Of a stretch of 64,000 nucleotides of DNA, positions 15,618 to 39,597 are shown piece after piece. The notes under the pieces are model-generated. The model searched no databases and had not been told where the DNA came from. It saw only the letters and a list, made by a program, of their open reading frames with translations. Where the stretch lies: the NCBI GenBank assembly GCA_052390035.1, contig JBQTHI010000044.1, positions 6,797 through 70,796 of the forward strand. The letters are read 5' to 3'. Position numbers and translations under genes: made by a program. The DNA is from Actinomycetota bacterium. Lineage in GTDB: Bacteria; Actinomycetota; Acidimicrobiia; Spongiisociales; ZC4RG35. Positions within the stretch are counted from its first letter, which is position 1. The number at the start of each line of letters is the position of its first letter.

Positions 15618-15634
15618 CTCATGCGGTTATGAGC
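15617..15634. terminator. bidirectional hairpin spanning both stop codons of convergent genes
   Basis: The hairpin is GCTCAT-gcggtt-ATGAGC. It overlaps the fadE TAG and the L,D-transpeptidase TGA. Confidence 0.3.
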
Positions 15635-16428: not shown

Positions 16429-16476
16429 GCTAGCCGCTCCCGTTCTAGCCTCCCGTCATGTCGCTCTCTCCCTGCC

Positions 16477-17457: not shown

Positions 17458-17483
17458 CAGCTGTAGTGCCGTTTAACCGGCGG

Positions 17484-17918: not shown

Positions 17919-17947
17919 CTGTCCACGCTAACGCGATTGGAGTCGGA

Positions 17948-18652: not shown

Positions 18653-18658
18653 AATCGT

Positions 18659-18682
18659 CTTACCCGCGTCAGCGCGGGTAAG
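18659..18682 (-). terminator. intrinsic terminator-like hairpin downstream of S9 peptidase gene
   Basis: A perfect 10-bp stem CTTACCCGCG-tcag-CGCGGGTAAG lies 5 nt after the stop. A U-rich tract (AUUUUGUCAUU) follows on the minus strand. Confidence 0.45.
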
Positions 18683-18686
18683 GCCT

Positions 18687-22963: not shown

Positions 22964-24183
22964 TTGAGAACGACCTCAAGCATGGCCTCAGCGGTGCGCA
23001 GGGAGTCCACCACTGTCGGCGGGGCCTCACCCGAGCCAAAAATGAATCCGAGGTAACGATCGGCGTCGGGGACAGGTCGTAGCTCGCTTCCCGGTGATGC
23101 TGTGATCTCGACCGAGTCGACCCCCGGCACCGCCAGCGCCCGGTCGATCCCCACTACCTCCTTGAGCGTTCCTGCTCTTCGAATCGGGAGCATCATCACT
23201 CCACTGGCTTTGGGACTCCTTCGGATCGGGGCACCGATGGGATGGGAACGCCCGACCGCGTGCCGGAGGATCAGCGACTCCAATGAGGTGCCGAGGAGCC
23301 CGAAGCGAAGCGCCCTTCCGCAGAGACCGCCGATCGATCGGGCCGCCACCTCGACCACCCTCACGCGCCCGTCGGTGATCCGCAGCTCGATGTGGACAGG
23401 ACCTTCGGTGAGGCCCACGGCCGACGTGGCCAGGCCGGCGACCCGCTCGACTTCCTCCAGGATCTCGGGGTGAAGGGATGATGGGGTGACATAGATCGCC
23501 TCTTCGAAGTAGGGGCCGTCGAGTGGGTCGGGCTTATCGAAGACGGCCAGCGTCTCGAGATGCCCTCTTCGCAGCATGCCCTCCAGCGTCACCTCCGGGC
23601 CGGGCATGAACGCTTCGATCAATACCGGCTCGCCCGGGCTGCGACCAGCTACCGCATTGATCCGCCGAACCCGCTCGAGTACCGGTTCGAGCCCTTCGGC
23701 ATTGTCAACCTTGATCACTCCCCGGCTCCCGGAAAGGGAGAGGGGCTTGGCCACCAGCGGGTACCCCACCACCTCAGCCAGCGGTGCTGCATCGTCGGTC
23801 CCTCCGACCAACCGGAAGGTGGGCTGGGGAACCTCGACCGCCTCGAGGGCCCGTCGGAGAGCAACCTTGTTGCGGGTGGCAGCCGCCGCCGACGGGGGGT
23901 TGTGCGCCAACCCCAGGCGCTCGGCGGCGAGGGCGGCCAACACCACTCCGGCGTCATCAACAGGAACGATGGCGTCGATTGGTGTTCGGGCGGCGAAATT
24001 CACAATTGTCTCGGCCGCCGCCTCCGGTCGAGCGCAGTCGATGCGAATGAACTTGCCTGTCTCGGTGAGCGGCAGCTCCTCCTCGGCTGCGACCACCACT
24101 TCAATGCCGAGGCCTGAGGCGGCATCGAGGAAGTCGCTGACCCGATAACTGGAGGTGGGGAGGATTAGGAGCACCCGGGGCAT
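22960..24183 (-). CDS. ATP-grasp domain ligase (function unknown)
   Basis: 407 aa. The fold is ATP-grasp (GYPLVAKP...EAFMPG...IELR). It overlaps the pfkA stop by 4 nt. Confidence 0.55.
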   Translation of the reverse strand: MPRVLLILPTSSYRVSDFLDAASGLGIEVVVAAEEELPLTETGKFIRIDCARPEAAAETIVNFAARTPIDAIVPVDDAGVVLAALAAERLGLAHNPPSAAAATRNKVALRRALEAVEVPQPTFRLVGGTDDAAPLAEVVGYPLVAKPLSLSGSRGVIKVDNAEGLEPVLERVRRINAVAGRSPGEPVLIEAFMPGPEVTLEGMLRRGHLETLAVFDKPDPLDGPYFEEAIYVTPSSLHPEILEEVERVAGLATSAVGLTEGPVHIELRITDGRVRVVEVAARSIGGLCGRALRFGLLGTSLESLILRHAVGRSHPIGAPIRRSPKASGVMMLPIRRAGTLKEVVGIDRALAVPGVDSVEITASPGSELRPVPDADRYLGFIFGSGEAPPTVVDSLRTAEAMLEVVLN

Positions 24184-24242: not shown

Positions 24243-24854
24243 GTGACCGAAAGCGTGCTCACCGTCGGCACAGAGGCCCTGGAGATGATCATCGGCCTCC
24301 GCGATCAGGAACCCTCGGACGAGGGGGAGATCGGGCTGCTGGTTGAAATAACCGGCCTCCACCACGGCCAATTCAGCTATGACCTGGCTTTTGTACCTGT
24401 TCAGGACGCCGGCCGCGATCACCACATTGAGCGCCACGGAGAGTTGACGGTGATCATTCCGAATGAGAGCGTCGGAAACCTCACCGGTGCCAGCGTCAAA
24501 CTCAACGACGAAGGCCTGACGATCGACAACCCCAACTCGCCGAGCCCCGCCATGGCTGCCCACAAGGGCAGCCTGGAGGGTCCCCTGGCCGACCAGATCA
24601 CCCAGGTTCTCCATGAAGATGTGAACCCCAAGATCGCCATGCACGGCGGTCGGGCGGAGTTGGTTTCGGTGGATGGCACCGTCGCCTATCTGAAGATGGG
24701 CGGTGGCTGCCAGGGATGTGGCATGGCACAGGTAACGCTCAAACAAGGCATCGAGCGGATCCTGATGGAGTCGATTCCCGAAATCACCGAGGTCATCGAT
24801 GTCACCGACCACGCCTCGGGTACAGATCCTTATTACCAGCGATCGAAGAAGTAG
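24243..24854 (+). CDS. nfuA: Fe-S cluster carrier NfuA-like (degenerate A-type carrier domain fused to Nfu domain)
   Basis: The C-terminal Nfu domain has the GGGCQGCGMA CxxC motif. The start is GTG 24243 or, better spaced from the GGAGGG RBS, GTG 24255. Confidence 0.65.
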   Translation: MTESVLTVGTEALEMIIGLRDQEPSDEGEIGLLVEITGLHHGQFSYDLAFVPVQDAGRDHHIERHGELTVIIPNESVGNLTGASVKLNDEGLTIDNPNSPSPAMAAHKGSLEGPLADQITQVLHEDVNPKIAMHGGRAELVSVDGTVAYLKMGGGCQGCGMAQVTLKQGIERILMESIPEITEVIDVTDHASGTDPYYQRSKK

Positions 24855-24897: not shown

Positions 24898-27030
24898 ATG
24901 GAACCTGTCCGCCGATGGCGGCGTCTGAGTCGTATGCGTCGCATGGTGTTGTTGGCCGCCGTCTCTCTCCTGACCCTGGCGGCTATTCCGTTGGCACAGG
25001 CCCAGGTAGCGCAGGCCCAACCTCCGGTTCGGATGGAGGCCAAGGTCGGGTTGGCCGGTTATGTGCAGATACAGCGGCCGGTGGAAGTGGCGGTAACCAT
25101 CGAAGCCGACGTTCTCTTTGCCGGATGGCTCGAGGCCAGGACCGGCGACACGGTGGTCAGGGTGGCGGTCGAAGTTCCCGCCGGGGGAGCGAAGACTTAC
25201 GACCTCCGCCTTCCGCCGCCGGTCGGTTCGGTATCGACCCGACTGCGCCTCTTTGATAGGAACGGCTCGGGTCGAGATGGTTCAGGCCCCCTGGCAACCA
25301 CCAACCTTCAGCTCAGAACCGTCGACGGTGAGACCCTGGTGGCAGTGGTGGGGCGGGACGAGCTCGTCAAGACCATCGACAGCGCCGAGGTGGCAGTCAC
25401 TGGTGACCCAGTCGTGGCCGCCGCCATCGACTTGGCTCGCCTCGAGACTGGAGTGGAGCCCGCCAACTATCTGGTGTTAGATCAGCCAGGTGAACTCCCC
25501 GAACCGGTGGTGTTGTGGCTCGACCGAGGAGGACGACTGGTCATCGATCGCCAAGACTCGGGTTCTTTGGGGCTGGCGTTCGGTCGGGTAATTCCTGATG
25601 GCGAGAGGTCCCTCTTGTCATACGGACAAGGCTGGGTGATTGCCGTCCCCGACATCGGCGCACTTGATGTGGTCGGGTGGTCCCAGGTGCTGGTGCCGAC
25701 TCCGATCCAGCTGGCACCCCGCGATGTCTGGCAAAGCCCTGAGCTCCAATTGATGCAGTCGGCAACGAGCGGCGGCGACCAGCGGGTCCCCTCGTTGCCG
25801 TGGTTGCTCGGTGCTCTGGTTGGCTACGCCATCCTGGTCGGCCCCGTCAACTTCCTGATCTTGCGGCGCCTCGGTCGTCGAGAGCTGGCCTGGGTCACGG
25901 TCCCGGCTCTGTCGCTCTTGGCTGTGGTCGGGTTTTGGCTGGCGGGACGTCAGCGGCTCGAGGAGACGATCATCAATCATGCGAGCCTCGTCATATCCGC
26001 CCCGGACCGGAGCGAAGGTCGGACCGCCCTGGTATTAGCGACCGGCTCCGGGGGCGAACGAACGGTGGCCGTACCCGCTGACTGGGAGGCCTACCCGGCG
26101 TCGGTGACGATCGATGGAGGCATGCCGGTGGCATCGGCGTTGGCTGAGTCCGTTGCTCCGGGCGAATTCCGATTCACGCTTGAACAACTCGGATCGGCCG
26201 GCGTGCAGAGTTGGTGGCAGAGCGCAGCGTTTGACCTTCCTCAAGTCCTGCCCTCCGCCTCGGACAATCGGCTAAAGATCGACGTCAACAACCAAACGCC
26301 CCATGAATTTTGGGCATGGGGACTGGTGGGCCGGGGACGGGTCACGGTCGCCCCCCAGGCCCTGGCGCCCGGTGAGGCGGGTGGCGTGTCGGTGTTACCC
26401 GGTCAAAGTGGCGCCAACGAGTTCGGGTCGGTCGGCGACGCCGTCATCAATAGCCGCAATTTGTGGAACGACCCGTTCATTTGGAACAAACTTGGTGCTC
26501 TCTCCTACGCGGCTTCCTCGCTCCTAGCCCAATACGACAGCTACTTCTTCGGTTACACCGACCAGATGTCGGTTTCCGTGATTGTCGATGGGCGCGAGGT
26601 AAAGGCGCCCGGGTCGACTCTCGTGCTGATACCGGTCGACGCCGGCGCCATCTTCGGCTCCCAGGCAGGCAGCGTCACCGCCCACTTAATCAGCACCGGT
26701 GACGCCAGTTGGGTCGACATCGGACCCGGTTATCTGTCGGTTTCAACCCAGCAGATGACTATCGGTTGGGAGGTGCCCCAGGACATTGCGACCGACCCCA
26801 CCCTGGCCGTGTCAAACATGTTCGGCGAGATCCCGCGAGTGCTCGAGGCTTACAATTGGGACGCCGACGCTTATGAGGAGGTCCTCGGGGGCCAGTCCCT
26901 CGACCTCGGCTTGTACCGAAGCCCAGTCGGCCAGGTGCTGGTACGGGCCAGCGCCGGCGACGGCGACGTTGAGGGCCAGTTCATCGAGCAGGCTATGTCA
27001 CCCTACGGCTTCAGTCTGGTCTGGCCGTGA
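24898..27030 (+). CDS. large exported/membrane protein of unknown function (first gene of ABC-2/MoxR operon)
   Basis: ATG 24898 gives a signal peptide (MEPVRRWRRLSRMRRMVLLAAVSLLTLAAIPLAQA). There are two predicted internal TM helices. The stop overlaps the next start (GTGA). Confidence 0.5.
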   Translation: MEPVRRWRRLSRMRRMVLLAAVSLLTLAAIPLAQAQVAQAQPPVRMEAKVGLAGYVQIQRPVEVAVTIEADVLFAGWLEARTGDTVVRVAVEVPAGGAKTYDLRLPPPVGSVSTRLRLFDRNGSGRDGSGPLATTNLQLRTVDGETLVAVVGRDELVKTIDSAEVAVTGDPVVAAAIDLARLETGVEPANYLVLDQPGELPEPVVLWLDRGGRLVIDRQDSGSLGLAFGRVIPDGERSLLSYGQGWVIAVPDIGALDVVGWSQVLVPTPIQLAPRDVWQSPELQLMQSATSGGDQRVPSLPWLLGALVGYAILVGPVNFLILRRLGRRELAWVTVPALSLLAVVGFWLAGRQRLEETIINHASLVISAPDRSEGRTALVLATGSGGERTVAVPADWEAYPASVTIDGGMPVASALAESVAPGEFRFTLEQLGSAGVQSWWQSAAFDLPQVLPSASDNRLKIDVNNQTPHEFWAWGLVGRGRVTVAPQALAPGEAGGVSVLPGQSGANEFGSVGDAVINSRNLWNDPFIWNKLGALSYAASSLLAQYDSYFFGYTDQMSVSVIVDGREVKAPGSTLVLIPVDAGAIFGSQAGSVTAHLISTGDASWVDIGPGYLSVSTQQMTIGWEVPQDIATDPTLAVSNMFGEIPRVLEAYNWDADAYEEVLGGQSLDLGLYRSPVGQVLVRASAGDGDVEGQFIEQAMSPYGFSLVWP

Positions 27031-27968
27031 GCATCGCCACTCTGCAGGGGGTCGAGAAACGTTATGGGCCGGTCCATGCACTGGCTGGGGTCGATCTGGA
27101 GGTGCCCGAAGGATCGGTCTTTGGGTTGATCGGACCCAATGGAGCAGGCAAGACCACCTCGATGTTGCTGATCAGCACCCTCCTATCTCGGGATGCAGGA
27201 GACATGCAGGTATTGGGGGTCGACCCGCAGATTGACCCCCGCGGAGTGCGCCGCCAACTCGGTTACATGCCCGACTTCTTCGGTTTCTACGACCATCTGA
27301 CGGTGGTCGAATATCTCGACTTCTTCGGCGCGGCCTCCGGGGTGCCGGCCGCCAAACGCCCGGCGGTCATAGCCGACTTGCTCAGTCTTGTCGATCTCGA
27401 CGACCGGGCCGGTGCCGACGTCAACAGTTTGTCCCGAGGAATGAAACAACGCCTGTCACTCGCCCGAGCACTGGTCCACGACCCAGCACTGTTGGTTCTC
27501 GATGAGCCCGCTTCGGGCCTCGATCCCCGCGCCAGGGTCCACCTGCGGGAGTTGATCGCCGAGCTCTCCCGGATAGGAAAAACGGTGGTCATCTCCTCAC
27601 ATATCCTCTCCGAGCTGGAAGGCATCTGCACTCACATGGCGGTGGTCGACCAGGGCAAAGTCAAAGCGCAGGGAAACATCGACGAAATCCGTCGCACGAT
27701 GACAGCCAGCCGTCGGATCTCGGCACGGGTTCCCGACGAGCAGGTCGACGGGACCGCCGAGCTGATCGGGGGTCAGCCGTCAGTGAGCGAGGTCGAGGTG
27801 GAGCGGGGTTTGGTGCGCTTCGTCTTGTCCGGCGACGAGTCCGACTCGGCTCGCCTGCTGGCCGTGGTGGTCGCCGGCGGATGGAGGGTCGCCGATTGGC
27901 GCATGGAGGTAGCCGGTCTCGAGGAGCTCTTTTTGCAAATCACCTCCGAAGAGAGTCCCTCCTCATGA
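27027..27968 (+). CDS. ABC transporter ATP-binding protein
   Basis: Walker A GPNGAGKTT, the signature LSRGMKQRLSLARAL and Walker B LLVLDEP are present. Confidence 0.85.
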   Translation: MSIATLQGVEKRYGPVHALAGVDLEVPEGSVFGLIGPNGAGKTTSMLLISTLLSRDAGDMQVLGVDPQIDPRGVRRQLGYMPDFFGFYDHLTVVEYLDFFGAASGVPAAKRPAVIADLLSLVDLDDRAGADVNSLSRGMKQRLSLARALVHDPALLVLDEPASGLDPRARVHLRELIAELSRIGKTVVISSHILSELEGICTHMAVVDQGKVKAQGNIDEIRRTMTASRRISARVPDEQVDGTAELIGGQPSVSEVEVERGLVRFVLSGDESDSARLLAVVVAGGWRVADWRMEVAGLEELFLQITSEESPSS

Positions 27969-28981
27969 TGAATCCGGTCTTGAGGCGGGAACTACTCGAA
28001 CGATTCCGGACCCGCCGGGCCGCCTGGTTCATGTTCGCTTGGACCCTTGGCATCGGTCTGGTGGGGTACGTCACCTACCTGGTCAGCCAACAGTTTGCCA
28101 ACGGCAACTTTGGGATGGGCCGTCTGATCGCCACCGGGTTCATGGGCCGTTTCTTGTTCCAGGGGATGATGATGCTGATGATGAGCGCCGTGATCATGGT
28201 GGTCCCTGGAGTCACGGCCCTGGCCATCGTTTCGGAAAGAGAAAGACAGACCCTTCCGCTGCTCCAGGTCACTCAGCTCTCCAATTACCAGCTGGTGCTG
28301 GGCAAGCTGAGCTCGTCGATGTCCTATTTCCTGCTGTTGCTTTTGGCGGTCGCCCCGGTGATGGCACTGCCGCTGTTGTTTGGGGGGATGAGCTTGCTTG
28401 ATGTGTTGGCGGCCCTGGCCATCATGGTGGCGACGGCGGTCATGCTCGGGAGCGTGGCCTTGGCGATCTCCTCGCGGGCAAAGTCAAGTCGTGGAGCCGT
28501 AGCCGGGAGTTATGGCTTCGCTTTCATCATCGCCTTCTTCACGATCGCCGTGCTGCTCGCCGAGTTTCTGATCGTGCGGCCGGCTGGCGGGGCGCTGGTG
28601 CCACCCCGAGGCCGCGAGGTGTACAGCTCGTGGCTGAACCCCTACGTCGCCATGGTTGATGCCGTCGAGGCGCCCCTGGCGGTGAGCACTGCGTTTCTTC
28701 CCACCCCTTTTGCCCCGATCGACGCCCTGCTCTATGCCCGCCAGGGAGTATCCGGGGGGTTCGGGTTCGGAGGGTTCTTCGGAGGTGAGATCGGCGGCAA
28801 TTTGATAGTCGATGACTCGGGCCGGCAATTGATCCGCATGCGGCGAGGGCCAGTTTGGCTGCGCACTCTGATCATCTACGCGGCCATCAGTGCGTTGGCA
28901 TTGATGCGCGCCGCTCGGGTGTTGCGGGCGCCGGCTACGGCCGCGTTCCGTCTGCGGAGGAGCCGAAGTGTGGCGGCCTGA
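27965..28981 (+). CDS. ABC-2 family permease (NosY/COG1277-like)
   Basis: The start overlaps the upstream stop (ATGATG). It has 6 TM segments and the SERERQTLPLL motif typical of ABC-2 'multi-copper enzyme maturation' permeases. Confidence 0.7.
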   Translation: MMNPVLRRELLERFRTRRAAWFMFAWTLGIGLVGYVTYLVSQQFANGNFGMGRLIATGFMGRFLFQGMMMLMMSAVIMVVPGVTALAIVSERERQTLPLLQVTQLSNYQLVLGKLSSSMSYFLLLLLAVAPVMALPLLFGGMSLLDVLAALAIMVATAVMLGSVALAISSRAKSSRGAVAGSYGFAFIIAFFTIAVLLAEFLIVRPAGGALVPPRGREVYSSWLNPYVAMVDAVEAPLAVSTAFLPTPFAPIDALLYARQGVSGGFGFGGFFGGEIGGNLIVDDSGRQLIRMRRGPVWLRTLIIYAAISALALMRAARVLRAPATAAFRLRRSRSVAA

Positions 28982-30566
28982 ACCGGGCCTTCCGCCGACC
29001 GTGGCGGATCTGATCCGCGCCGCTCGGGCGCGCATGACCTGGTCTGGCTTGGCTCTTCGAGCCGTCACGTTGGTTGGGGTGGCGGCGGCCCTGGCTGCCG
29101 TCCTGGTAGCGGTTGGCCGTTTGGTGGCCCTGCCGTGGACCGAACCGGTTGCAGCCGGGCTCATTGGGGCCGGGGCGATGGCGGCGGTGCTAACGGGTCT
29201 TTTCCGGCCGGTTTCCCCCCAGGCGGCGGCGCTGGCCGTAGATCGTCGCCTGGGCGGATTTGACCGGATTTCGACGGCGCTCGAGCTGTCGAGCGGCGGT
29301 CCGAGCGGAGATCCCGAGGCTCGCCAGGTGGAGGCCGCCCGGGTGTGGGCGCAGAACCGAAGCGTGGCCTCCCTCGGTCGCCTATTTCCCCGCGGGTGGT
29401 TGCCGCGTCTGTCGGTGGGTGCGGTGGCTGCAACCCTCTTGCTGGCCCTGGTGCCTGCGGCCACCGACGTCTTGCTGGCCCGACATCGCGCCGAGCAACA
29501 GCTGATCGAGGAGGAGATCGAGCGGCTTACCGAGCACGCAGAAGAGGCTCCTCCCGAGGTCGCCGAGATGCTCGAACGACTGATCGAGGAGCTGGCCCGG
29601 GCAGAGAGCCTCGACCAGGCCATCTCCTCGCTGGGCGAGGCACGACAACAACTGGCCGAGCTGGCCGACCCGGCCGAGCTGGCTGCCCGCACCGCCTTGG
29701 CCGGCCTGGAACAGCGCCTCGAACAGAACCCGATCGCCGAGGGCGGCTCGGCCTCCGAACAACTGCGAGAACTCGCCCGACAGCTGAACGCGACCTCCCC
29801 GGAGGCAATGGCGGCCGCCGCCGCCGAATTGGCGGCTCGCGCCGGTGACCTGGCTGGTGTGGACCAGGAGCTATCCGATGCCCTGGCTGTAGCCGCTGCC
29901 GCTCTCGAACAGGCCGCTCTCGATCCTGGCGCGCTTGGAACCGCCGCTGTGGCTTTGGGTGAGGCGGCGTCTCAGCTTGATCGAGCGAACGCCGAGGCGG
30001 CCGAGGCAGCGGCCAGGGCTGACGTGCAGGCTCAGGTGAGAGACGCTCAGGCTCGCCTGGCCCAAGCGCGCGACGCCGGGACGGGACAAGCAACCGGAGA
30101 AGGTCAGGGTCAAGGGCAAGGCCAGGGTCAAGGGCAAGGTCAGGGCCAGGGGCAGGGCCAGGGGCAAGGCCAGGGGCAAGGGACTGGTGCAGGGGGCGGT
30201 GGAGGTGGGCAGGGCGCCGGTGGATCGAGCGGAAGCGGCGGCACCCAGGGTGGGACCGGTTCGGGAAGCGTCGGTCACGGCACCGGTGATCACGATCCGG
30301 TGCTCGATCCAGCTCGCAGTCAGATCTTCGACCCAGTTGAACATGGCCTCGGCGACGAGGTCAGGGTTGACCTCGGCCCGGGCAACACTCCCGGCGAGCC
30401 GACCGGCAGCACCAGCGGGCAGGGGGTCGAAAACTTGCCTCTCACCGGCTACGCCGACCGATTCACCCAATACCGCCAGGCGGCGTTGGATTCGCTCGAT
30501 CGTCTGGTTATCCCCACCGACCTCCAGGATCTTGTCCGCCGATATTTCACCGAGTTGGAGCCCTAG
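28968..30566 (+). CDS. membrane-anchored coiled-coil protein with (GQ)13 / Gly-rich low-complexity region
   Basis: GTG 28968 follows a GGAGG RBS. The protein has N-terminal TM helices, a long Ala/Glu/Leu-rich coiled coil, (GQ)13, a Gly-rich segment and a conserved-looking C-terminal 60 aa. Confidence 0.55.
   Translation: MWRPEPGLPPTVADLIRAARARMTWSGLALRAVTLVGVAAALAAVLVAVGRLVALPWTEPVAAGLIGAGAMAAVLTGLFRPVSPQAAALAVDRRLGGFDRISTALELSSGGPSGDPEARQVEAARVWAQNRSVASLGRLFPRGWLPRLSVGAVAATLLLALVPAATDVLLARHRAEQQLIEEEIERLTEHAEEAPPEVAEMLERLIEELARAESLDQAISSLGEARQQLAELADPAELAARTALAGLEQRLEQNPIAEGGSASEQLRELARQLNATSPEAMAAAAAELAARAGDLAGVDQELSDALAVAAAALEQAALDPGALGTAAVALGEAASQLDRANAEAAEAAARADVQAQVRDAQARLAQARDAGTGQATGEGQGQGQGQGQGQGQGQGQGQGQGQGQGTGAGGGGGGQGAGGSSGSGGTQGGTGSGSVGHGTGDHDPVLDPARSQIFDPVEHGLGDEVRVDLGPGNTPGEPTGSTSGQGVENLPLTGYADRFTQYRQAALDSLDRLVIPTDLQDLVRRYFTELEP
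30102..30179 (+). repeat. in-frame hexanucleotide repeat (GGNCAR)x13 encoding (Gly-Gln)13
   Basis: Read directly: ggtcagggtcaagggcaaggccagggtcaagggcaagg... Confidence 0.85.
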
Positions 30567-30622
30567 ACCCAGATGAGTAGACCCAGATGAGTAGACCCGA
30601 ATGAGTACACCCAGATGAATTC
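30567..30622 (+). repeat. four tandem copies of a 14-bp repeat (ACCCAGATGAGTAG) bridging the upstream stop codon and the moxR start codon
   Basis: Copies sit at 30567, 30581, 30595 (ACCCGAATGAGTAC) and 30609 (ACCCAGATGAATTC). The moxR ATG (30615) lies inside copy 4. Each copy carries an ATG. Confidence 0.8.
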
Positions 30623-31583
30623 ACCAGAGGAGTTCGCCCGTTCTCTCAACGCCGCTCGGGCCGAGATCGGCAAAGTCATCGTCGGCCAGAAGGATCTCGT
30701 CGACACCGTTCTCACCGCCGCGTTGTGCGAAGGCCATGTCCTACTGGAAGGTGTGCCTGGCCTCGGGAAGACCAAACTCCTGGCGACGCTGGGCCGAGTT
30801 TTGGACGTCGAGTTCGGGCGGGTTCAATTCACCCCTGATCTCATGCCTGCCGACATCCTCGGCACCAAGGTTTTGACCGGAAACGACTTCAAGTTCCACG
30901 AAGGTCCGATCTTTGCCAACCTGGTGTTGGCCGACGAAATCAATCGGGCAACTCCCAAGACCCAGTCGGCCCTGCTCGAAGCAATGCAGGAGCGGAGAGT
31001 GACCCTGGGAGGGGAGACCCACGCTCTCCCCCGACCCTTCCTGGTGATGGCGACTCAGAATCCGATCGAGCAGGAAGGCACCTACCCACTCCCCGAGGCT
31101 CAACTCGACCGGTTCCTTTTCAAGGCGCTCGTGAGCTTCCCGCCAGCCGACGACGTGGTTGAGATTCTCCGCCGCACCACCGCCGGCCACGAAGCCCAAC
31201 CCGATCCGGTGATCGATGGGGCAGCGATCATCGCCATGTCGGAGTTCGTGAGGAGCCTCCCCGCCGGGACCCACCTACTTGCCTACGCCGCCACCCTGGT
31301 CGAGGCAACCCACCCGGAAAGTGCCAAGGCTCCGGAAATGGTGCGGCGTTATGTCAGGTTCGGCGCCAGCCCCCGCGGCGCCCAGGCATTGGTCATGGGC
31401 GGGAAGGCCTTCGCCTTGATCGACGGCCGGCCCAACCTCGCCGCCGAAGACATATGGCGGGTGGCCCCGATGGCGCTCCGGCATCGACTGGTGCTCGGCT
31501 ACGAGGCGCTCGCCGACGGGATCAAAGCCGACGAGATCGTCACCGAGGTCCTCGGCGCTTATCCCGCTCCGATTGCCCGTTAG
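30615..31583 (+). CDS. MoxR-family AAA+ ATPase
   Basis: Walker A GVPGLGKT, Walker B LADEINRA and the MoxR N-terminal EIGKVIVGQ motif are present. Confidence 0.85.
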   Translation: MNSPEEFARSLNAARAEIGKVIVGQKDLVDTVLTAALCEGHVLLEGVPGLGKTKLLATLGRVLDVEFGRVQFTPDLMPADILGTKVLTGNDFKFHEGPIFANLVLADEINRATPKTQSALLEAMQERRVTLGGETHALPRPFLVMATQNPIEQEGTYPLPEAQLDRFLFKALVSFPPADDVVEILRRTTAGHEAQPDPVIDGAAIIAMSEFVRSLPAGTHLLAYAATLVEATHPESAKAPEMVRRYVRFGASPRGAQALVMGGKAFALIDGRPNLAAEDIWRVAPMALRHRLVLGYEALADGIKADEIVTEVLGAYPAPIAR

Positions 31584-32453
31584 ATGCTGCTCTCGGCGGA
31601 GTTACGGGGCCGTCTGGAGCGCCTCTCGATCACCACCCGCCGACGGGTCATAGCCCAGTGGGCCGGTCGGCACTCCTCCCGGCACAAAGGCGAGAGCCTT
31701 GACTTCGCCGACTCTCGGGCATATGTGCCCGGTGATGACTTCCGGAGGATCGACCACAACCTCTGGGCCAGGCTCGGCGTTCTTCTGGTTCGTCAATACC
31801 AGGCCGAGGAGGAGCTACCGCTTCGTCTGGTGATCGACACCTCGACCTCAATGGCGTTCTATCGCAAGCTCGAAACAGCCCGCACCCTGTCCGCCATGAT
31901 CGTGTACCTGGGTCTGGCCGGGGGGGACAGGGTCCAGTTGTTCGCCGTGCCAGGGCCCGACGATCTCGCCATGGAGGCGGGCCCGAGTGGCCGCCACCTT
32001 TCCCGCTGGCCGCAACTGGAAGCATGGATCGAGGGCCGCTCACCAACCGGGTCCGGCCCGATGGCGCCGTCTTTGCGACGGCTTGCGGGTGAAGGTCCCA
32101 ACCGCGGCTCGATAGTGCTCGTCTCCGATCTCCTGACCGCCGATTGGCAGCCGGCGCTCGACGGTCTGGGCCTTGGCACCGGAGGAGTGGTGCTCCATGT
32201 CCTCGGCGAAGAGGAAATCGACCCTTCGATTGCAGGCGATGTCCGTCTGGCCGATTCGGAGACCGGATCCGAGTTGGCGGTGTCCACCTCCGAAGAGGCG
32301 ATGCGACGTTATAGAACAGCGTTGGAGCAGTTCGCCTCCGAGGCTGGCCAACGCGCCAAGCGAGCCGGGCTTGATTACGTGTTGGTGCCGGCCCGAGATG
32401 ACGCTCCCGAGCAGGTGCTGGCCGCGCTCGCCCGAAGCGAGGCGGTGGCATGA
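31584..32453 (+). CDS. DUF58 domain protein (MoxR partner)
   Basis: The ATG abuts the moxR TAG. The motif DFADSRAYVPGDDFRRIDHN is typical of DUF58. Confidence 0.75.
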   Translation: MLLSAELRGRLERLSITTRRRVIAQWAGRHSSRHKGESLDFADSRAYVPGDDFRRIDHNLWARLGVLLVRQYQAEEELPLRLVIDTSTSMAFYRKLETARTLSAMIVYLGLAGGDRVQLFAVPGPDDLAMEAGPSGRHLSRWPQLEAWIEGRSPTGSGPMAPSLRRLAGEGPNRGSIVLVSDLLTADWQPALDGLGLGTGGVVLHVLGEEEIDPSIAGDVRLADSETGSELAVSTSEEAMRRYRTALEQFASEAGQRAKRAGLDYVLVPARDDAPEQVLAALARSEAVA

Positions 32454-32469
32454 CTCGGCGGCTCGGGCT

Positions 32470-34278
32470 GTGAGCTTCCTCATACCCACCGCCTTGGGTC
32501 TGGCGGCTCTGGCCGGGCCCCTCATCGTCCTATACATGCTCCGATCCCGACGACCACGCATCGAAGTGGCAAGCACCATGTTGTGGGAGAAGGTCGAGGT
32601 CCCGGTGTCCTCGGCCGTCCCGTGGCAAAAGCTGAAAATGACACCGCTTCTCATTCTCCAGCTGTTGGTGCTCGCCGGTTTCGTGCTCACCCTGGCCCGG
32701 CCGTTCTACACCCAGGCGACATTGCTCGGCCCCCACACCGTGTTTGTGTTCGACACCTCGGGCTCGATGGCGATGGCCGATCGCCTGGAAAAAGCTGTAT
32801 CCAACTCCCGCCGGCTGCTCACCGACCTCTCTTCTGACAACCAGGTATCGATCATCAACGCCGGGCCGGTGCCGAGAGTGTTGGTCGCTTTCGCCCGTGA
32901 CCCCGAACTGGTCGAAACCGGCCTCGACTCCCTCGTGCCAACCGGCGGGCGTGCTGACCTGTCGGGTGCCATCCGCCTCGCCCGCGGTCTGGCCACCCCC
33001 GACCACCCCACCAACATCCTCATCTTCTCCGATGGGGGCGACGCCGTGCTTCCCGAAGAGCCCGTGGTGGGGGCCGAGCTGATCCTCTTTGACGACTTCG
33101 GCCCAAATCTGGCGATCACCTCCTGGTCGCTGGAACCGTCGACCGAAGGTACCACCAGGGCCTTTCTGCAAGTCGCCAATTTCTCGACCGAAGAGCGCAC
33201 CGTCAGGGCGGAGGTAGCCGTCAACGGCCTGGCCGCCGGTCTGCTTGATCTGGACGTACCCGCTCAGGGGAACGCTCGGCGGACCACCCCGATCGACGCC
33301 GGTGCCGGGGACGTGGTTTCGGTCTCGCTGGTCGGCAACGAGGATTCCCTTCCGCTTGATGATCGGGCCGATCTGTTGGTGGGTGGCGGACCGGATCGGG
33401 AGGTGACATTGAGCGGTGAGGGATCACCGTTCCTCGAAGCATTGATCGATGCAGTTCCCGGATTCTCGACGAATACCGCCAACGACGGTGGCGACCTTCA
33501 GGTCATCGATCGCGGGGATCAATATGACATCGACCGGCCAACCTGGCTCATTGCCCCGACCACCCCCCCTGAGGGGGTCACCTTGATTGAATTCGTTCGG
33601 AACACGGCGGTGACCTATCAGCGGCCCGGTGAGCCGATTCTCGATTCGGTCGACCTATCACAGATGGCTGTGGCAGAGGCTCAGGTGGTGGATGCCCCCC
33701 GCTGGCTGACTCTGGTCAGGGCGGGCGAAGTGCCCCTGATCCTGCTGGGGGAGGTGAGCGGACACCGCGTGGCGTATTTCACTTTTGATCTGACTCATTC
33801 CAACCTGCCCATCCAAATCGGGTTTCCGATTTTGGGCGCTCGTCTGCTCGATTGGCTGGCAGGCGGTAGTGCAGGAGCCGTCCTAACCGAACCTGCCGGC
33901 AGCCCGATCCAGTTGACCGCCGCCCCCGGCTCCACCATTTTCGTAACCACGCCCAACGGGGAGCGCAGACAACTCGCCGAGGGCGCTACGTCATTTGTGG
34001 ATACGGGAGCACCCGGCGTCTATCGAGTGGCATCAGTTGACGCCGACGGCGCCGTAAGTGAAGGTCCCTCCGCGGTGCGCACCTTCGTCGCTGAAGAATC
34101 GGCGGGAAGCTCCCGGCTGATCACCACCACCGGAGCCGCCACCGAGACCGAAGAGCCATCGGTGCTGATCAGGGAGTGGGCTCCTTGGGTCATTTCCGTG
34201 GTGGTGGTGTTGATGGCCATCGAGTGGTGGGTTGGCCACCAGCGGCCCTTCTTACCTCGCCGGCGGGTCACCGCATGA
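32470..34278 (+). CDS. BatA-like membrane protein with vWA domain
   Basis: GTG 32470 gives MSFLIPTALGLAALAGPLIVLYMLRSRRP (aerotolerance-regulator N-terminal TM). The vWA MIDAS-like motif is VFDTSGSM. A C-terminal TM is present. Confidence 0.65.
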   Translation: MSFLIPTALGLAALAGPLIVLYMLRSRRPRIEVASTMLWEKVEVPVSSAVPWQKLKMTPLLILQLLVLAGFVLTLARPFYTQATLLGPHTVFVFDTSGSMAMADRLEKAVSNSRRLLTDLSSDNQVSIINAGPVPRVLVAFARDPELVETGLDSLVPTGGRADLSGAIRLARGLATPDHPTNILIFSDGGDAVLPEEPVVGAELILFDDFGPNLAITSWSLEPSTEGTTRAFLQVANFSTEERTVRAEVAVNGLAAGLLDLDVPAQGNARRTTPIDAGAGDVVSVSLVGNEDSLPLDDRADLLVGGGPDREVTLSGEGSPFLEALIDAVPGFSTNTANDGGDLQVIDRGDQYDIDRPTWLIAPTTPPEGVTLIEFVRNTAVTYQRPGEPILDSVDLSQMAVAEAQVVDAPRWLTLVRAGEVPLILLGEVSGHRVAYFTFDLTHSNLPIQIGFPILGARLLDWLAGGSAGAVLTEPAGSPIQLTAAPGSTIFVTTPNGERRQLAEGATSFVDTGAPGVYRVASVDADGAVSEGPSAVRTFVAEESAGSSRLITTTGAATETEEPSVLIREWAPWVISVVVVLMAIEWWVGHQRPFLPRRRVTA

Positions 34279-36974
34279 GGTTCGCCCATCCCTGGTGGTT
34301 GGTGGCCATACCCCCCGTTCTGGGGCTGACCTGGCTAGTCGCCCGGCGCGGGGGACGAGCGGTTTCACGGCGTCAACATCGGTGGGCGCTCGGGATTCGC
34401 CTTGGCGGGTTGCTGCTCTTGGTCACTGCCGCCGCCCAACCGATCGTCACCAGATCGGTGGACGATCGTGCGGTCCTGTTTCTGCTTGATCGGTCTGCTT
34501 CGGTATCGGATTCGGCCCGCGCCGCGCAGGAGGCTTTCCTGAGTGCGGCGCTGGCCGAAGGCAGAGCCGATGGGCGGACCGCGGTGGCGGTGTTTGGCCG
34601 CGACAGTCGACTCGACTCGGCGTTCACCGTTGACAGGTCCGGAGGCCCGATCAGGACGATCCCTGACGACTCGGCGACCGACATCGCTTCGGCCCTGCAA
34701 GCCGCCGCTTCGTTGATGCCCTCGGAGGGTTCACGGCGCATCGTCCTCCTCACCGATCTGGTCCCCACTACGGGCGACGTCGGCCCGGCGATCCGTCAGC
34801 TGGCAGAACAAGGCGTGGCGGTGGATGTCGTCGAGCTGGCGTCCGCTCGAACCCCCGATGCCCTGGTCGAATCGGTGATCCTGCCTCCAGCAGTGCGCGA
34901 GGGTGACACCGTGCCGGTTACGGCGGTGATTCGCTCCAATCAGGCAGGGTCGGCCGTGGTGGCGGTGAGATCCGGCGATGGTGACGAGCAGCGGATTCCC
35001 GTCCAGGTGGTGGCTGGGCGCAACGAGGTATCGCTCGAAGTCAACGCGGTGGGAGTCGGGTTCCTCCCGGTTTCGATCCAGGTCGAAACGGAGTTCGATA
35101 CGAGACCGGAGAACAATCGGGCGGAGGGGATCACCCGAATTCTCGGCCCTGCCCGAGTGGCGGTGGTGGAGGGAGTCGCCGGAGAGGCCGAGGCGCTGGG
35201 TGAGGCGCTCGTCGCCGGAGGAATCGAGGCCGACCTTCGGCGTTCGATCCCCACGGAGGGGGAGCTGCTCAGCTATGACGCGGTCGTCCTGGTGAATGTC
35301 GATCAGCCGGGACTGGTGGAATCGGAGAACCTCTCGGCGTTTGTTGAAGATCTCGGGCGTGGACTGGTGGTTGTTGGTGGCGACCGGGCTTTTGGGCTTG
35401 GTGACTACCACGAGACGCCGCTTGAGGCGGTGCTTCCCGTGAGTTCGAATCCGGACGACCTGGTGAGGCGTCAGCCGGTGGCGGAGGTGCTGGTCATCGA
35501 CTCCTCCGGGTCGATGGGTGCCTGTCACTGCAACATGGGCCAGGCCGCCGAAGGTGGGGTGGTGAAAACCGATATCGCCAAGGCCGGAGCGGAGCTCGCC
35601 ATCAACGCCCTCACCGACGATGATCGGGTTGGTGTGCTGGCGTTCTCATCAGGCACGGACTGGGTGATTCCCCTGGCGCCCCGCTCAACCATCACCGACC
35701 CGGCGGGGGCTCTCGGGGTGATCACTCCCAATGGTGACACCGAGATCTCCAACGCCCTTGAGGTGGCGCTTGACGAGCTGGCCGGCGCTCCCGAGCAGCT
35801 CCGCCACATCGTCCTCTTTACCGACGGGTGGGATCCGAGCGATGCTGCCCTATTGCCAATGGCGCGGGAAATCGCCGATGCCGGAGTGACTCTTTCGGTG
35901 TTGGGCACCGGGGAGGGTCCGGGCACGACTCTGAGCCGGATGGCCGAGCTGGGCGGCGGACGTTTTTACGCCGGCACGGACCTGGAGGCGGTTCCGGAGG
36001 TCTTCGTCGAGGAGACTTTGATCGTTGCCCGCAATCTGGCCGTCGAGGGGACCTTCTTTCCGATCCTCGCTGCCCCATCTCCCGTCACCCAGGATCTGAC
36101 CGCCTCCCCACCCCTGCTCGGTTATGTGCTGACCAAGGCCAAAGGAAGTGCTTCGCTCCTGATGGAGATCGGGCAGGCCGACCCGCTTCTTGCCACCTGG
36201 CAGCGCGGGCTGGGGCGGGCCACCGTCTGGACGTCGGATGCCACCGTCCGGTGGTCGAGCCAGTGGGTGGACTGGGAGGAGTATGCGGACTTCTGGGGTC
36301 GTTTGGTAAGAGACGTGTTGCCAGCGGGGCGGGAGAATCCGCCAGCCGTTCACGTCGAAGACGGCCGGCTGGTCATTTCCTACCAACAGCAGGGCACCGA
36401 CCTCGACGCCTCCGCCTCGGCCCGGGTTCGCCGGCCCGACGGCGAGGTAATCGAAGTCCCCATGGACCGGGTGAGCGGCTCCGATTTCTCCGCCCGGGTA
36501 GCCCTGGGCCCGGCCGGCGCCTATTGGGTCGCCGTCACCGTTGACAATCCCGATGGCTCGCAGATTGTTTCCGGAGCAGGGGCAGTTTCCGCCTATGAAG
36601 AGGAGTTCGCCTTCCGCGAGCCGGATCCGGCGTTGGGGGCCGCCATCACGACGATCACCGGCGGGAGGCTCAACCCCGGACCAGCAACCGTGTTCGATCC
36701 GGCCCCCGTGCGGGGACGGGCCGAAGTTTCCTTCTGGCCGTGGTTGGCCGCCGCCGCTCTGGCTCTCTTCCTCCTCGACGTGGCCTTGAGCCGGCTGCTG
36801 CTCGGGGAGGGTGACGCCCAGGCCTGGCGGGAAGGGCTGACTTCAACCGGCCGTGGCAGGGAGAGGCGGCGGGTGGCGCGGGCAGTTGAAGAGGCCACGA
36901 CCAGTCGGGAGGCACCGCCGGTTCTCTCCGACTCGGAGACCCTCGAACGCCTGATGCGCCGTAAACGACGATGA
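34275..36974 (+). CDS. large membrane protein with two vWA domains and a class-I glutamine-amidotransferase-like domain
   Basis: The ATG overlaps the upstream stop (ATGA). There are two DxSxS-type vWA motifs (LLDRSASVSD; VIDSSGSMG), a GATase1-like segment, and a C-terminal TM plus Arg-rich tail. Confidence 0.6.
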   Translation: MRFAHPWWLVAIPPVLGLTWLVARRGGRAVSRRQHRWALGIRLGGLLLLVTAAAQPIVTRSVDDRAVLFLLDRSASVSDSARAAQEAFLSAALAEGRADGRTAVAVFGRDSRLDSAFTVDRSGGPIRTIPDDSATDIASALQAAASLMPSEGSRRIVLLTDLVPTTGDVGPAIRQLAEQGVAVDVVELASARTPDALVESVILPPAVREGDTVPVTAVIRSNQAGSAVVAVRSGDGDEQRIPVQVVAGRNEVSLEVNAVGVGFLPVSIQVETEFDTRPENNRAEGITRILGPARVAVVEGVAGEAEALGEALVAGGIEADLRRSIPTEGELLSYDAVVLVNVDQPGLVESENLSAFVEDLGRGLVVVGGDRAFGLGDYHETPLEAVLPVSSNPDDLVRRQPVAEVLVIDSSGSMGACHCNMGQAAEGGVVKTDIAKAGAELAINALTDDDRVGVLAFSSGTDWVIPLAPRSTITDPAGALGVITPNGDTEISNALEVALDELAGAPEQLRHIVLFTDGWDPSDAALLPMAREIADAGVTLSVLGTGEGPGTTLSRMAELGGGRFYAGTDLEAVPEVFVEETLIVARNLAVEGTFFPILAAPSPVTQDLTASPPLLGYVLTKAKGSASLLMEIGQADPLLATWQRGLGRATVWTSDATVRWSSQWVDWEEYADFWGRLVRDVLPAGRENPPAVHVEDGRLVISYQQQGTDLDASASARVRRPDGEVIEVPMDRVSGSDFSARVALGPAGAYWVAVTVDNPDGSQIVSGAGAVSAYEEEFAFREPDPALGAAITTITGGRLNPGPATVFDPAPVRGRAEVSFWPWLAAAALALFLLDVALSRLLLGEGDAQAWREGLTSTGRGRERRRVARAVEEATTSREAPPVLSDSETLERLMRRKRR

Positions 36975-37011: not shown

Positions 37012-38112
37012 ATGGTGACCGCAAAGCGACGTCAGGCTGAGAAGCCCCCCGCGTGGCTCTCCCGGGCTGTGATAATCGTCGTCGGGATCCTGGCACTGGC
37101 GGCGGCGGCGGGCTTGGTCCTTTATCGCATCCGCGGGCTGTTCTATATGCTTTTCCTCGCCACCTTCGTGGCAATTGCTCTTGAACCGGCCGTGCAGCGA
37201 CTCGTCAGGCGTGGGTGGAAGCGTTCCCGGGCAACCCAGCTCGTCTTTTTTGTCGCCGCCCTGCTTTTCGCCGGGTTCCTGGTTGCCCTCATCCCGGTGT
37301 TCGTTGCCCAGGCGGCCCGTCTCATCGAGACCGTGCCGCTTTATCTCGAAGACCTACAGCAGCTTGCCTCCACCTACTTTCAAATCGAGCTGGTCGATCC
37401 GGACATCACCGGACAATTCGAGGACCTGGGAGGCCTTTTGCGCCAATATGCCTCGGAGGTGGCGGGAGGAATCTTCGCCATCGGCAACACCGTCTTCGGT
37501 GCCGTCTTCCAATTGGTCACCGTGACCCTGTTCGCCTACTACCTGGTCGCTGTAGGTCCGACCTGGAGACGGGCGCTCTTGTCAACCCTGCCGCCCGAGC
37601 GTCAGCGCGAGGCGCTCAACATCTGGGAGGTATCGGTCGCCAAGACCGGGGGATACGTCTATTCGCGCCTGGTGCTGGCCGTCGTTGCCGGGATATTCAC
37701 CTTCCTGGTGCTGATCATCCTGCGGGTCCCGTCGGCCGCCGCCCTGGCCGTATGGATGGGGGTGCTCTCCCAGTTCGTTCCGGTCATCGGTACCTACGTC
37801 GGGCTCGTATTGCCGGGTCTGGCTGCCCTGGCCTTAAGTCCTCTCACGGCGCTGTGGGTCATTGTTGCCTTGGTCGGCTACCAGCAGATAGAAAACTATC
37901 TGATCGCCCCCAGGGTTACCGCCCGTACGATGGCGATGCACCCGGCGGTCACCATCGGAGCTCTGATCGCTGGAGCGAGCCTCCTCGGGGCGATGGGAGC
38001 GGTGCTGGCCCTCCCCGTGGCGGCGACCATCCAGGCATTGATCTCGACAACACTCCAGCGCCATACCCTGGTGGACTCGCCCTACCTCGAGGATCTGGTT
38101 GAGCGGGTTTGA
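37012..38112 (+). CDS. AI-2E family transporter (PerM/UPF0118)
   Basis: 8 TM segments. The YQQIENYLIAPRV motif is present. Confidence 0.8.
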   Translation: MVTAKRRQAEKPPAWLSRAVIIVVGILALAAAAGLVLYRIRGLFYMLFLATFVAIALEPAVQRLVRRGWKRSRATQLVFFVAALLFAGFLVALIPVFVAQAARLIETVPLYLEDLQQLASTYFQIELVDPDITGQFEDLGGLLRQYASEVAGGIFAIGNTVFGAVFQLVTVTLFAYYLVAVGPTWRRALLSTLPPERQREALNIWEVSVAKTGGYVYSRLVLAVVAGIFTFLVLIILRVPSAAALAVWMGVLSQFVPVIGTYVGLVLPGLAALALSPLTALWVIVALVGYQQIENYLIAPRVTARTMAMHPAVTIGALIAGASLLGAMGAVLALPVAATIQALISTTLQRHTLVDSPYLEDLVERV

Positions 38113-38181
38113 AGTTCCACTAACTGTTGGACCTGCAAGAAGCGGTAGCTCGTCGGGGGCCCGGTTTAGCATGATCAGCCG

Positions 38182-39018: not shown

Positions 39019-39043
39019 CCGCTTCCTGTTGATCCAGCCGCGG

Positions 39044-39553: not shown

Positions 39554-39597
39554 TTGCAGCCCCGAGAATGGGACGGCCATACAGCTAGCCTGCCGTC

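Follow-up and report, generated by a model that had tools for sequence, protein, structure and literature searches.

Within a 64,000-nucleotide stretch of contig JBQTHI010000044.1 (GenBank assembly GCA_052390035.1) from the metagenome-assembled genome of an Actinomycetota bacterium of the class Acidimicrobiia, here called the window, a run of eight plus-strand genes at positions 24898–36974 joins an ABC-2 (ATP-binding cassette type 2) transporter to a MoxR-type AAA+ ATPase, a DUF58 protein and two proteins with von Willebrand factor A (vWA) domains. On balance, we favor the reading that these genes, named G1 to G8 in their order, encode one envelope-associated membrane complex with two ATPases that serves in the assembly or maintenance of an extracytoplasmic structure. 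Because the same gene order is found in at least four phyla, a single cell-envelope machine is probable, rather than a chance neighborhood. As judged from its sequence, the cluster appears to be a conserved, translationally coupled eight-gene unit that specifies two ATPases and four large membrane proteins. All eight same-strand open reading frames (ORFs) that a sequence-only reading had placed in this interval are present in the ORF list, and each of the domains it had named (ABC-2, MoxR, DUF58, BatA and vWA) was confirmed by searches of Pfam and NCBIfam. The genes are as follows.

24898–27030, plus strand: G1, a protein of 710 residues (AlphaFold2 model, profile alignments)
27027–27968, plus strand: G2, an ABC ATPase of 313 residues (ABC_tran, E = 1e-26)
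27965–28981, plus strand: G3, an ABC-2 permease of 338 residues with six transmembrane (TM) segments (ABC2_membrane_2)
28968–30566, plus strand: G4, a protein of 532 residues with three TM segments (alignment and topology; no Pfam match)
30615–31583, plus strand: G5, a MoxR-type AAA+ ATPase of the AAA_3 class, 322 residues (AAA_3 and AAA_lid_2)
31584–32453, plus strand: G6, a DUF58 protein of 289 residues (DUF58, PF01882)
32470–34278, plus strand: G7, a protein of 602 residues (BatA and VWA_2)
34275–36974, plus strand: G8, a protein of 899 residues (Pfam, AlphaFold2 model, Foldseek)

The functional argument hinged, by a test set beforehand, on whether relatives keep this gene order, and synteny was found: dozens of genomes, belonging to four phyla, carry the ABC-2 and MoxR halves collinearly. 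We scanned one genome per species of the GTDB with an alignment of the permease, kept the best 80 of at least 512 relatives and placed the partner genes in these 80 loci by tblastn, counting only loci with enough flanking sequence. The order G1, ABC ATPase, ABC-2 permease, G4, MoxR, DUF58, BatA/vWA protein, double-vWA/GATase protein recurs in Acidimicrobiia, Chloroflexota, Dormibacterota and Bacillota, and the carriers comprise Acidimicrobiia and other Actinomycetota, Chloroflexota (Chloroflexia, Anaerolineae and Ardenticatenales), Dormibacterota, Symbiobacteriaceae and Clostridia. Specifically, G1 lies upstream of the permease in 66 of 68 evaluable loci and MoxR downstream of it in 54 of 58; DUF58 was found at 51 of 56, G7 at 44 of 46 and G8 at 40 of 46, where inserted genes had pushed G8 past the fetched flank in most of the misses. 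Distant G1 homologs with 35% and 31% identity sit in the identical eight-gene order, and collinearity is kept down to about 25% G1 identity, while G5 is 60–85% identical in orthologous clusters. A 4.3-Mb chromosome that has a DUF1657 gene nearby carries the full set of eight genes, and a metagenome-assembled genome (MAG) from the Chloroflexia, in which the G1 counterpart bears a DUF7408 domain, has the same series with a DinB_2 gene and a GAF histidine kinase gene inserted.

Departures from this order are informative about which parts of the cluster belong together. Three loci from Clostridia/Lachnospiraceae read G1, ABC ATPase, ABC-2 permease, G4, a small ORF, G7 and G8, with MoxR and DUF58 missing, so the vWA proteins G7 and G8 travel with the ABC half. 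The MoxR-less form L077 comes from a Lachnospiraceae isolate, B68. A Chloroflexota locus (L064) has the ABC half and lacks the MoxR half within about 8 kb, the triad of G1, ABC ATPase and permease is tandemly duplicated in a member of the Symbiobacteriaceae (L065), and a second ATPase and permease pair stands between MoxR and DUF58 in a member of the Anaerolineae (L068). Across the loci, G1 accompanies the transporter, and the AAA+ pair is as a rule, though not without exception, encoded in cis. Viewed from the MoxR side, among 80 metagenomic loci with MoxR relatives at 46–64% identity, ABC-2, G1 or G4 genes lie upstream of MoxR only in L091, L096 and L097 (and, as G4 alone, in L092), and these genes are absent from about 25 loci that offer at least 6 kb of upstream sequence. 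Many of the MoxR-side loci consist of MoxR, DUF58, in some cases BatA, and a G8-like gene alone, and most have a DUF58 match directly downstream of MoxR. The rarity of ABC genes at these loci marks the ABC-2 half as an addition, made in a minority of cases, to a widespread module of four genes (MoxR, DUF58, BatA and vWA/GATase), and not as a general feature of MoxR systems. The best explanation of the cluster is that a MoxR-DUF58-vWA system resembling those called Bat and Cmd gained an ABC-2 module of its own in certain lineages, namely Acidimicrobiia, Chloroflexota, Dormibacterota and some Bacillota. The MoxR-DUF58-BatA-vWA part belongs to the Bat/Cmd class of MoxR systems and probably works as they do. 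The Clostridia without MoxR and DUF58, and the many bacteria without the ABC half, thus act as natural deletion variants.

Some carriers hold additional ORFs without a Pfam family inside the cluster: one of 169 residues at 12423–12932 in L077 (Lachnospiraceae), one of 131 residues at 14504–14899 in L086, and two in the Anaerolineae locus L068, of 210 residues at 12891–13523 and of 869 residues at 17238–19847. These inserted ORFs may be lineage-specific components. Separately, one contig of a Trueperaceae MAG (L047) ends in a permease fragment with 60% identity to G3 and has no match to G1 or G2 in the 10 kb upstream; the arrangement may differ here, or the contig may be chimeric or mis-binned.

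The genes of the window are tightly packed. It had been proposed that they are joined by stop/start overlaps of the types GTGA, ATGATG, ATGA and TAGATG; the first two and the last are as described, whereas the ATGA at 32450 is out of the G7 frame. Overlaps of 4 nt join G1 to G2 (GTGA), G2 to G3 (ATGA, inside ATGATGA) and G7 to G8 (ATGA), and G3 and G4 overlap by 14 nt. The DUF58 gene begins at the base after the MoxR stop, so that G5 and G6 abut directly (0 nt, TAGATG). Spacers of 48 nt and 16 nt separate G4 from G5 and G6 from G7, respectively, the start of G7 being GTG 32470. A small sequence feature lies at each of the two gaps.

30564–30618: a 14-nt tandem repeat, TAGACCCAGATGAG, in 3.9 copies (Tandem Repeats Finder, TRF)
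32454–32473: a 20-nt insertion, CTCGGCGGCTCGGGCTGTGA (comparison with loci L013 and L088, frame check)

The 14-nt repeat duplicates the junction of the G4 stop and the G5 start, with a TAG and an ATG in every copy, and in loci L007, L008, L088 and L003 the junction between G4 and moxR reads GAGCCATGA, a 4-nt ATGA overlap. Replication slippage, an assembly artefact or altered translational coupling could each account for the repeat. At the junction of DUF58 and BatA, L013 and L088 read GGCATGAGCTTCCTG, which encodes M-S-F-L; the 20-nt insertion of the window ends in GTGA and so creates the new in-frame G7 start, and the old ATG (ATGA at 32450–32453) is now out of frame. The start at GTG 32470 fits the BatA profile, residues 1–78 of G7 aligning with profile positions 1–77. 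Across loci, the median estimated junction is −4 nt at each of G1/G2, G2/G3, G4/G5, G6/G7 and G7/G8, and the overlap is exactly 4 nt (ATGA) at G4/MoxR in 23 of 42 loci and at DUF58/G7 in 35 of 51. Since relatives keep ATGA overlaps at the two places, the G4/G5 and G6/G7 gaps appear to be recent, lineage-specific small insertions in what was ancestrally a fully overlapping gene string. A terminator scan of the window returned as many sites as expected from shuffled sequence and no terminator-like site at the gap between G4 and the MoxR gene. A scan for σ70-type promoters gave 0 sites, a result that is uninformative about promoters in a high-GC actinobacterium. Scans with Rfam and for tRNAs found no RNA genes in the window, whose composition (about 64% G+C) is uniform across its 64,000 nt.

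G2 and G3 fit the definition of an ABC-2 transporter, an ATPase with an ABC_tran domain and a separate permease of the ABC2_membrane group. The ABC_tran match of G2 scores 94.5 bits and is followed by a weak DrrA1-3_C-like C-terminal domain, and the sequence contains readable Walker A, signature and Walker B motifs. The NCBIfam models that score best against G2 are DrrA (218 bits, cut-off 312) and then GldA (196.8 bits, cut-off 402.6), both below threshold; NosF is absent among the 25 best NCBIfam matches listed, and G2 scores below every equivalog cut-off. G3 matches ABC2_membrane_2 (30.2 bits, E = 3e-7, cut-off 27.2) and has six hydrophobic segments with a loop of 91 residues between TM5 and TM6 by hydropathy; it matches no NCBIfam model at E ≤ 0.01 and no PDB chain at E ≤ 1. 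The sequence-only reading had pointed to a SERERQTL motif in the permease and had tied it to the NosY, or multi-copper-enzyme maturation, group. The motif is there, and its core (ERERxT, ERERQT in G3) is conserved across four aligned permease orthologs, but the tie to NosY is not supported, neither G2 nor G3 having a specific match to NosF or NosY.

The protein encoded next to the permease, G4, is a member of an unannotated coiled-coil family. All 36 of its homologs are labeled "hypothetical" and lack a Pfam domain, and G4 itself has no Pfam match even at E ≤ 10 and, by profile, no relative in the PDB. It has a conserved loop between TM2 and TM3 (D92-R94-L95-G96...S102-T103-E106), a long acidic coiled coil, a (GQ)n/Gly-rich spacer and a C-terminal motif, YR..A...LD...IP......VR.YF..L. 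At 30100–30210, repeats arranged in tandem and having periods of 6, 12 and 18 nt encode this spacer. The GQ run is conserved in Acidimicrobiia orthologs and degenerate in those of Chloroflexia, and because of this conservation we take it to be a functional low-complexity linker rather than noise.

The second half of the cluster begins with a clear member of the AAA_3 class. G5 matches AAA_3 with 211.7 bits (E = 3.7e-63, cut-off 27) and AAA_lid_2 with 61.3 bits (E = 7e-17), and its Walker A (GVPGLGKT) and Walker B (LADEINR) motifs are readable. G6 is a DUF58 protein (100.2 bits, E = 1.2e-28, cut-off 23.4) with a motif, DTSTS, resembling a metal-ion-dependent adhesion site (MIDAS). G7 matches BatA over residues 1–78 (44.6 bits, E = 2e-11, cut-off 25.9) and VWA_2 (48.3 bits, E = 1.8e-12), and consists of a BatA-type N-terminus with two TM segments, a vWA domain (MIDAS DTSGS), about 330 further residues of ectodomain, a C-terminal TM segment and a short basic tail; past the vWA domain its orthologs match DUF7407 in L077 and, weakly, DUF7408 in L086. 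G8 had been described as a protein of 899 residues that combines two vWA domains with a glutamine-amidotransferase-like fold and an Arg-rich tail, and Pfam, model and alignment agree on this description: there are two VWA stretches and a GATase1_like domain (PF07090; 52.9 bits, E = 5e-14, cut-off 27), and the conserved basic tail reads ...SETLxRLMRRKRR. In the AlphaFold2 model of G8 (pLDDT 79, pTM 0.48) two TM helices are followed by the first vWA domain (DRSAS), a β-sandwich, a GATase1-like α/β domain interrupted by the second vWA domain (DSSGS), a further β-sandwich, a TM helix and a basic helical tail. Foldseek searches with G8 returned extracellular vWA proteins, including BatB (3ibs) and a Bacteroides fragilis protein (4jdu).

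G1 had been reported to have no recognizable domain, and indeed it has no Pfam match even at E ≤ 10. Its roughly 100 close homologs are each labeled "hypothetical", yet the family is large: among 1.84 billion representatives a G1 profile matched 4957 clusters at E ≤ 1e-3 (365 of them at E ≤ 1e-30), which amounts to about 5000 clusters at 50% identity. The same profile found nothing meaningful among PDB sequences. An AlphaFold2 model built from a 61-sequence alignment is confident (pLDDT 90.6, pTM 0.86) and has an N-terminal hydrophobic helix, a β-sandwich (residues 44–138), an α/β domain (146–264), two long TM helices (301–354) and, over residues 357–709, several β-sandwich domains with a short helical insert. 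The predicted layout is thus a signal or anchor, a β-sandwich, a ThuA/DUF4350-like α/β ectodomain, a TM hairpin (about residues 297–348) and a C-terminal ectodomain of multiple β-sandwiches. G1 had also been called an exported protein; the N-terminal signal or anchor segment supports this, although the central TM hairpin, seen both in hydropathy and in the model, means that it is not simply exported. G1 orthologs from Chloroflexia and Bacillota match DUF7408 above threshold (28.7 bits) at the α/β domain and DUF4350 below its cut-off (20.9 bits) at the same domain, and the G1 profile aligns end to end with a DUF7408-bearing Chloroflexia protein (probability 99.7). From these profile matches, G1 appears to be a divergent member of the DUF7408-containing family. 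DUF4350 has itself been tied by HHpred to GldG, which serves the ABC-2 transporter for gliding as its accessory subunit (Makarova et al., PMC5898192), and searches of Pfam and NCBIfam gave no match of GldG or ABC_transp_aux to G1 or G8.

By hydropathy and charge counts, G1, G4, G7 and G8 have large acidic domains, and the loops and tails flanking their TM segments are short and rich in Arg and Lys, so the large domains would, by the positive-inside rule, be extracytoplasmic. Hydropathy found no hydrophobic segment in G2, G5 or G6; G6 is therefore probably cytoplasmic, and G2, the MoxR protein G5 and the DUF58 protein G6 would all be cytoplasmic and would reach their partners only through the BatA loop of G7, the TM2–TM3 loop of G4 and C-terminal tails, including the RRKRR tail of G8. 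The vWA domain of the BatA-like protein BB0173 is periplasmic by experimental mapping, the same orientation as predicted here (PMC5700661).

Taken together, these features suggest how one complex might work. G2 and G3 would pair into an ABC-2 dimer, and G1, probably with G4 as a stalk, would be the dedicated extracytoplasmic partner of this dimer. Such a partnership has precedents, as NosFY works with NosD and GldAF with GldG as the extracytoplasmic partner. The transporter and its partner might export a lipid- or glycan-like component of the envelope, or might pass ATP-driven movement on to the ectodomains. A MoxR hexamer, together with DUF58 as a cytoplasmic vWA-type adaptor, would act on the cytoplasmic loops and tails of G7 and G8 to assemble, activate or recycle these two proteins, and the MIDAS sites of G7 and G8 outside the membrane would bind an envelope ligand such as a component of the wall or the surface layer. 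Overall, the cluster would serve to build or maintain a structure of the envelope or surface, and would not insert a metal cofactor into any particular enzyme. The sequence-only reading had proposed a machine that exports or assembles a separate client, and this is possible; because the conserved unit holds no obvious client, the extracytoplasmic proteins of the cluster may themselves be what is assembled.

Several points weigh against this reading. The link between G1 and GldG is at the level of fold and weak profiles, DUF4350 being below threshold and the G1 of the window being without a Pfam match, and hhalign of G1 against G8 found no relationship beyond a weak β-sandwich stretch. The absence of MoxR and DUF58 from three Clostridia/Lachnospiraceae loci may mean that the AAA+ part is dispensable or loosely coupled. 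The topology rests on the positive-inside rule and on one homolog, BB0173, and the proposal as a whole is read from the sequences and predicted structures of the carriers. As a separate matter, we had considered that G1, G7 and G8 might be paralogs, which is unsupported given the negative result of hhalign for G1 and G8.

We also entertain, tentatively, a stronger version, in which the ABC-2 and MoxR motors act on the same extracytoplasmic vWA, GldG-like and coiled-coil proteins, forming a previously unrecognized trans-envelope machine, widespread in Actinomycetota, Chloroflexota, Dormibacterota and Bacillota, and hence a new secretion or surface-assembly system of single-membrane bacteria. 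If true, it would provide the first defined structural context, and a testable role, for MoxR-DUF58-BatA (Bat/Cmd) systems. MoxR-DUF58-vWA operons of the kinds called Bat and Cmd occur in a large fraction of bacteria, and after 25 years they have only vague links to aerotolerance and envelope integrity. The variant described here physically links this module with an ABC-2 transporter and with two large families of unnamed membrane proteins (G1 and G4), gives context to the orphan Pfam families DUF7407 and DUF7408, and offers a concrete hypothesis with a defined list of parts, that of a complex for envelope assembly or mechanotransduction with its working parts outside the membrane. A full-text search of the accessible literature returned no description of this cluster or of any MoxR system with an ABC-2 transporter, in keeping with the earlier statement that none was known.

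It is rather unlikely, but worth weighing, that the cluster is instead a new apparatus for protein secretion or surface translocation in single-membrane bacteria, with motors that export or move surface proteins or polymers whose genes lie outside the cluster. Such an apparatus would be comparable to the GldAFG transporter of gliding as well as to the system predicted in archaea. The GldG/DUF4350-like fold of G1, the GATase1_like domain of G8, the place of GldA as the second-best NCBIfam model of G2, the predicted membrane-bound or extracytoplasmic location of most components and the size of the G1 family, with its thousands of clusters, are all consistent with such an apparatus, for which there is also a published prediction in the case of an archaeal DUF4350/MoxR/vWA analog (PMC5898192). 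Pfam searches, however, found no cargo gene and no pilin-like, secretin-like or translocon-like component in the cluster, and the proposal overlaps heavily with that of an envelope-assembly complex, from which it differs mainly by its external cargo. ABC-2 exporters, moreover, usually move lipids or glycans, not folded proteins, and the carrier lineages are not known to glide, some Chloroflexia excepted.

Maturation of a metal cofactor, to which the sequence-only reading had pointed, is improbable. The ABC-2 transporter would then act as NosFY does, and the MoxR and vWA proteins as CoxD/CoxE or NorQ/NorD do, in the delivery of Cu, Mo or Fe to a specific redox enzyme. What suggests this is the ERERQT motif of G3 and its place in the broad ABC-2 group that includes NosY, the proximity in the window of a NifU-like gene (43 nt upstream) and of an XdhC/CoxI gene and a gene for a cupredoxin plus NosD-like protein downstream, the occurrence of MoCF_biosynth, XdhC and COXG genes downstream of the cluster in L088, and the fact that characterized MoxR-class ATPases such as NorQ/NorD insert metals. 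Set against these are the lack of an NCBIfam or PDB match for G3, the scores of G2 below every equivalog cut-off, and the type of G5, which is AAA_3 (MoxR proper) with DUF58 and BatA partners and not the CoxD/NorQ type. The neighbors are not conserved either: the NosD-like gene is missing in L088 and L089, XdhC is present in 1 of 89 loci, NifU is confined to Acidimicrobiia/Actinomycetota, and no candidate client enzyme is kept beside the cluster in Chloroflexota, Dormibacterota or Bacillota.

We give little credence to the idea that an ABC-2 exporter and a Bat-like MoxR module are two independent systems, neighbors that are co-transcribed for convenience. Seen from MoxR, most MoxR-DUF58-(BatA)-G8-like loci do lack the ABC half, and there are loci that lack the MoxR half (L064) or MoxR and DUF58 (the three Clostridia/Lachnospiraceae loci). 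Independence is nevertheless hard to reconcile with collinearity across four phyla at G1 identities down to about 25%, with the ATGA overlap that joins G4 to MoxR in 23 of 42 loci, with the interleaving of ABC genes within the MoxR half of L068 and with the retention of G7 and G8 beside the ABC half where MoxR is missing. An anti-phage or conflict system of the MoxR-vWA type, suggested by a secondary bpMoxR match of G5 (E = 2e-11) and by the MoxR-vWA ternary conflict systems described in PMC7159879, is highly improbable, given that PADLOC found no match for G1 or G3–G8 and only generic ABC-ATPase similarity, that the AAA_3 match of G5 is far stronger than the bpMoxR match, that Pfam found no β-propeller or effector domain in the eight proteins, and that the cluster occupies a stable chromosomal site among housekeeping genes, with class-wide synteny and in a window of uniform composition.

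The genes around the cluster in the window were also inspected. The NifU-like gene lies at 24243–24854 on the plus strand, its NifU domain spanning residues 119–185, and is adjacent to the cluster in about 25 Acidimicrobiia/Actinomycetota loci and in none from Chloroflexota, Dormibacterota or Bacillota. The gene could be a ninth operon member peculiar to that lineage, or the adjacency could be local synteny only. Upstream and divergent, a gene at 22960–24183 (minus strand) encodes a protein resembling ATP-grasp L-amino-acid ligases (ATP-grasp_4 and LAL_C2), and its position is kept in 22 Acidimicrobiia/Actinomycetota loci. Downstream of the cluster, 37012–40650 (plus strand) holds genes for an AI-2E family transporter, a multi-TM protein of 278 residues without a Pfam family and XdhC/CoxI (39598–40650). 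L088 has the same AI-2E/multi-TM/XdhC series, with MoCF_biosynth and COXG, at 12744–16841, and we regard this as a small neighborhood for molybdenum-cofactor maturation that is conserved only among the closest relatives. A gene at 41168–43186 (plus strand), 4 kb downstream of the cluster, encodes a protein of 672 residues with an unusual architecture, in which a cupredoxin/plastocyanin-like domain is combined with a NosD-like right-handed β-helix and, at the C-terminus, a PLDc_N domain; this gene was found in the window only, being absent from the matching position in L088 and L089 and giving no tblastn match in the 89 loci. We rejected the NosD-like, XdhC and NifU genes as conserved partners or clients of the cluster, their linkage being limited to the closest relatives or to Acidimicrobiia/Actinomycetota.

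Among the closest known systems are the Bat loci of Bacteroides, Leptospira and Borrelia (MoxR-DUF58-BatA-BatB-BatC-BatD-BatE). In both, an AAA_3-type MoxR is followed by DUF58 and then by a BatA protein with two TM segments and by vWA/MIDAS proteins; the vWA domain of G8 superposes on those of BatB (3ibs) and 4jdu, and the vWA domain of BB0173 is likewise outside the membrane. The two differ in that no TPR or SH3 protein (BatC, BatE) and no BatD family member is present among the eight proteins or their immediate neighbors, whereas an ABC-2 transporter, G1 and G4 are added and G8 carries two vWA domains along with a GATase1-like one. The hosts differ as well, Actinomycetota, Chloroflexota, Dormibacterota and Bacillota here as against Bacteroidota and spirochaetes. 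The cmdA-cmdD genes of Rhizobium leguminosarum (RL3499–RL3502) are summarized as a "broadly conserved" operon for MoxR, DUF58 and vWA membrane proteins, mutants of which have envelope and morphology defects (PMC5700661); the summary reports no ABC-2 transporter and no genes of the G1 or G4 type.

The nearest published idea is that archaeal arCOG01314 proteins (DUF4350, GldG-like) form, with MoxR and vWA proteins, a predicted complex for secretion or membrane remodeling (Makarova, Galperin and Koonin 2015, PMC5898192). That system has no ABC transporter among its components, whereas a true ABC-2 pair is present here, and its GldG-like protein has a single C-terminal anchor in place of the central TM hairpin of G1. 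Actinobacterial MoxR-DUF58 clusters such as PFNA of Bifidobacterium likewise have MoxR and DUF58 beside membrane or surface β-sandwich proteins but are reported to include a Ser/Thr kinase, an FN3 protein and a transglutaminase and no ABC-2 transporter, BatA-type protein or GATase1_like double-vWA protein.

On the transporter side, NosDFY and GldAFG resemble the cluster in that the genes for an ABC ATPase and an ABC-2 permease adjoin that for a large extracytoplasmic accessory protein, in that GldA is among the best models of G2 and in that G1 and G8 have GldG-like or class-I-GATase-like folds. They differ in that no equivalog threshold is reached, in the lack of sequence similarity to solved ABC-2 permeases and in the lineages and envelope type, and NosD, NosL and NosZ are not conserved with the cluster. 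Cryo-EM work on NosDFY reportedly indicates that such transporters act as mechanotransducers. What is new here is that a Bat-like system contains an ABC-2 module as an integral part, together with two protein families that lack annotation, and that this combination is kept in four phyla.

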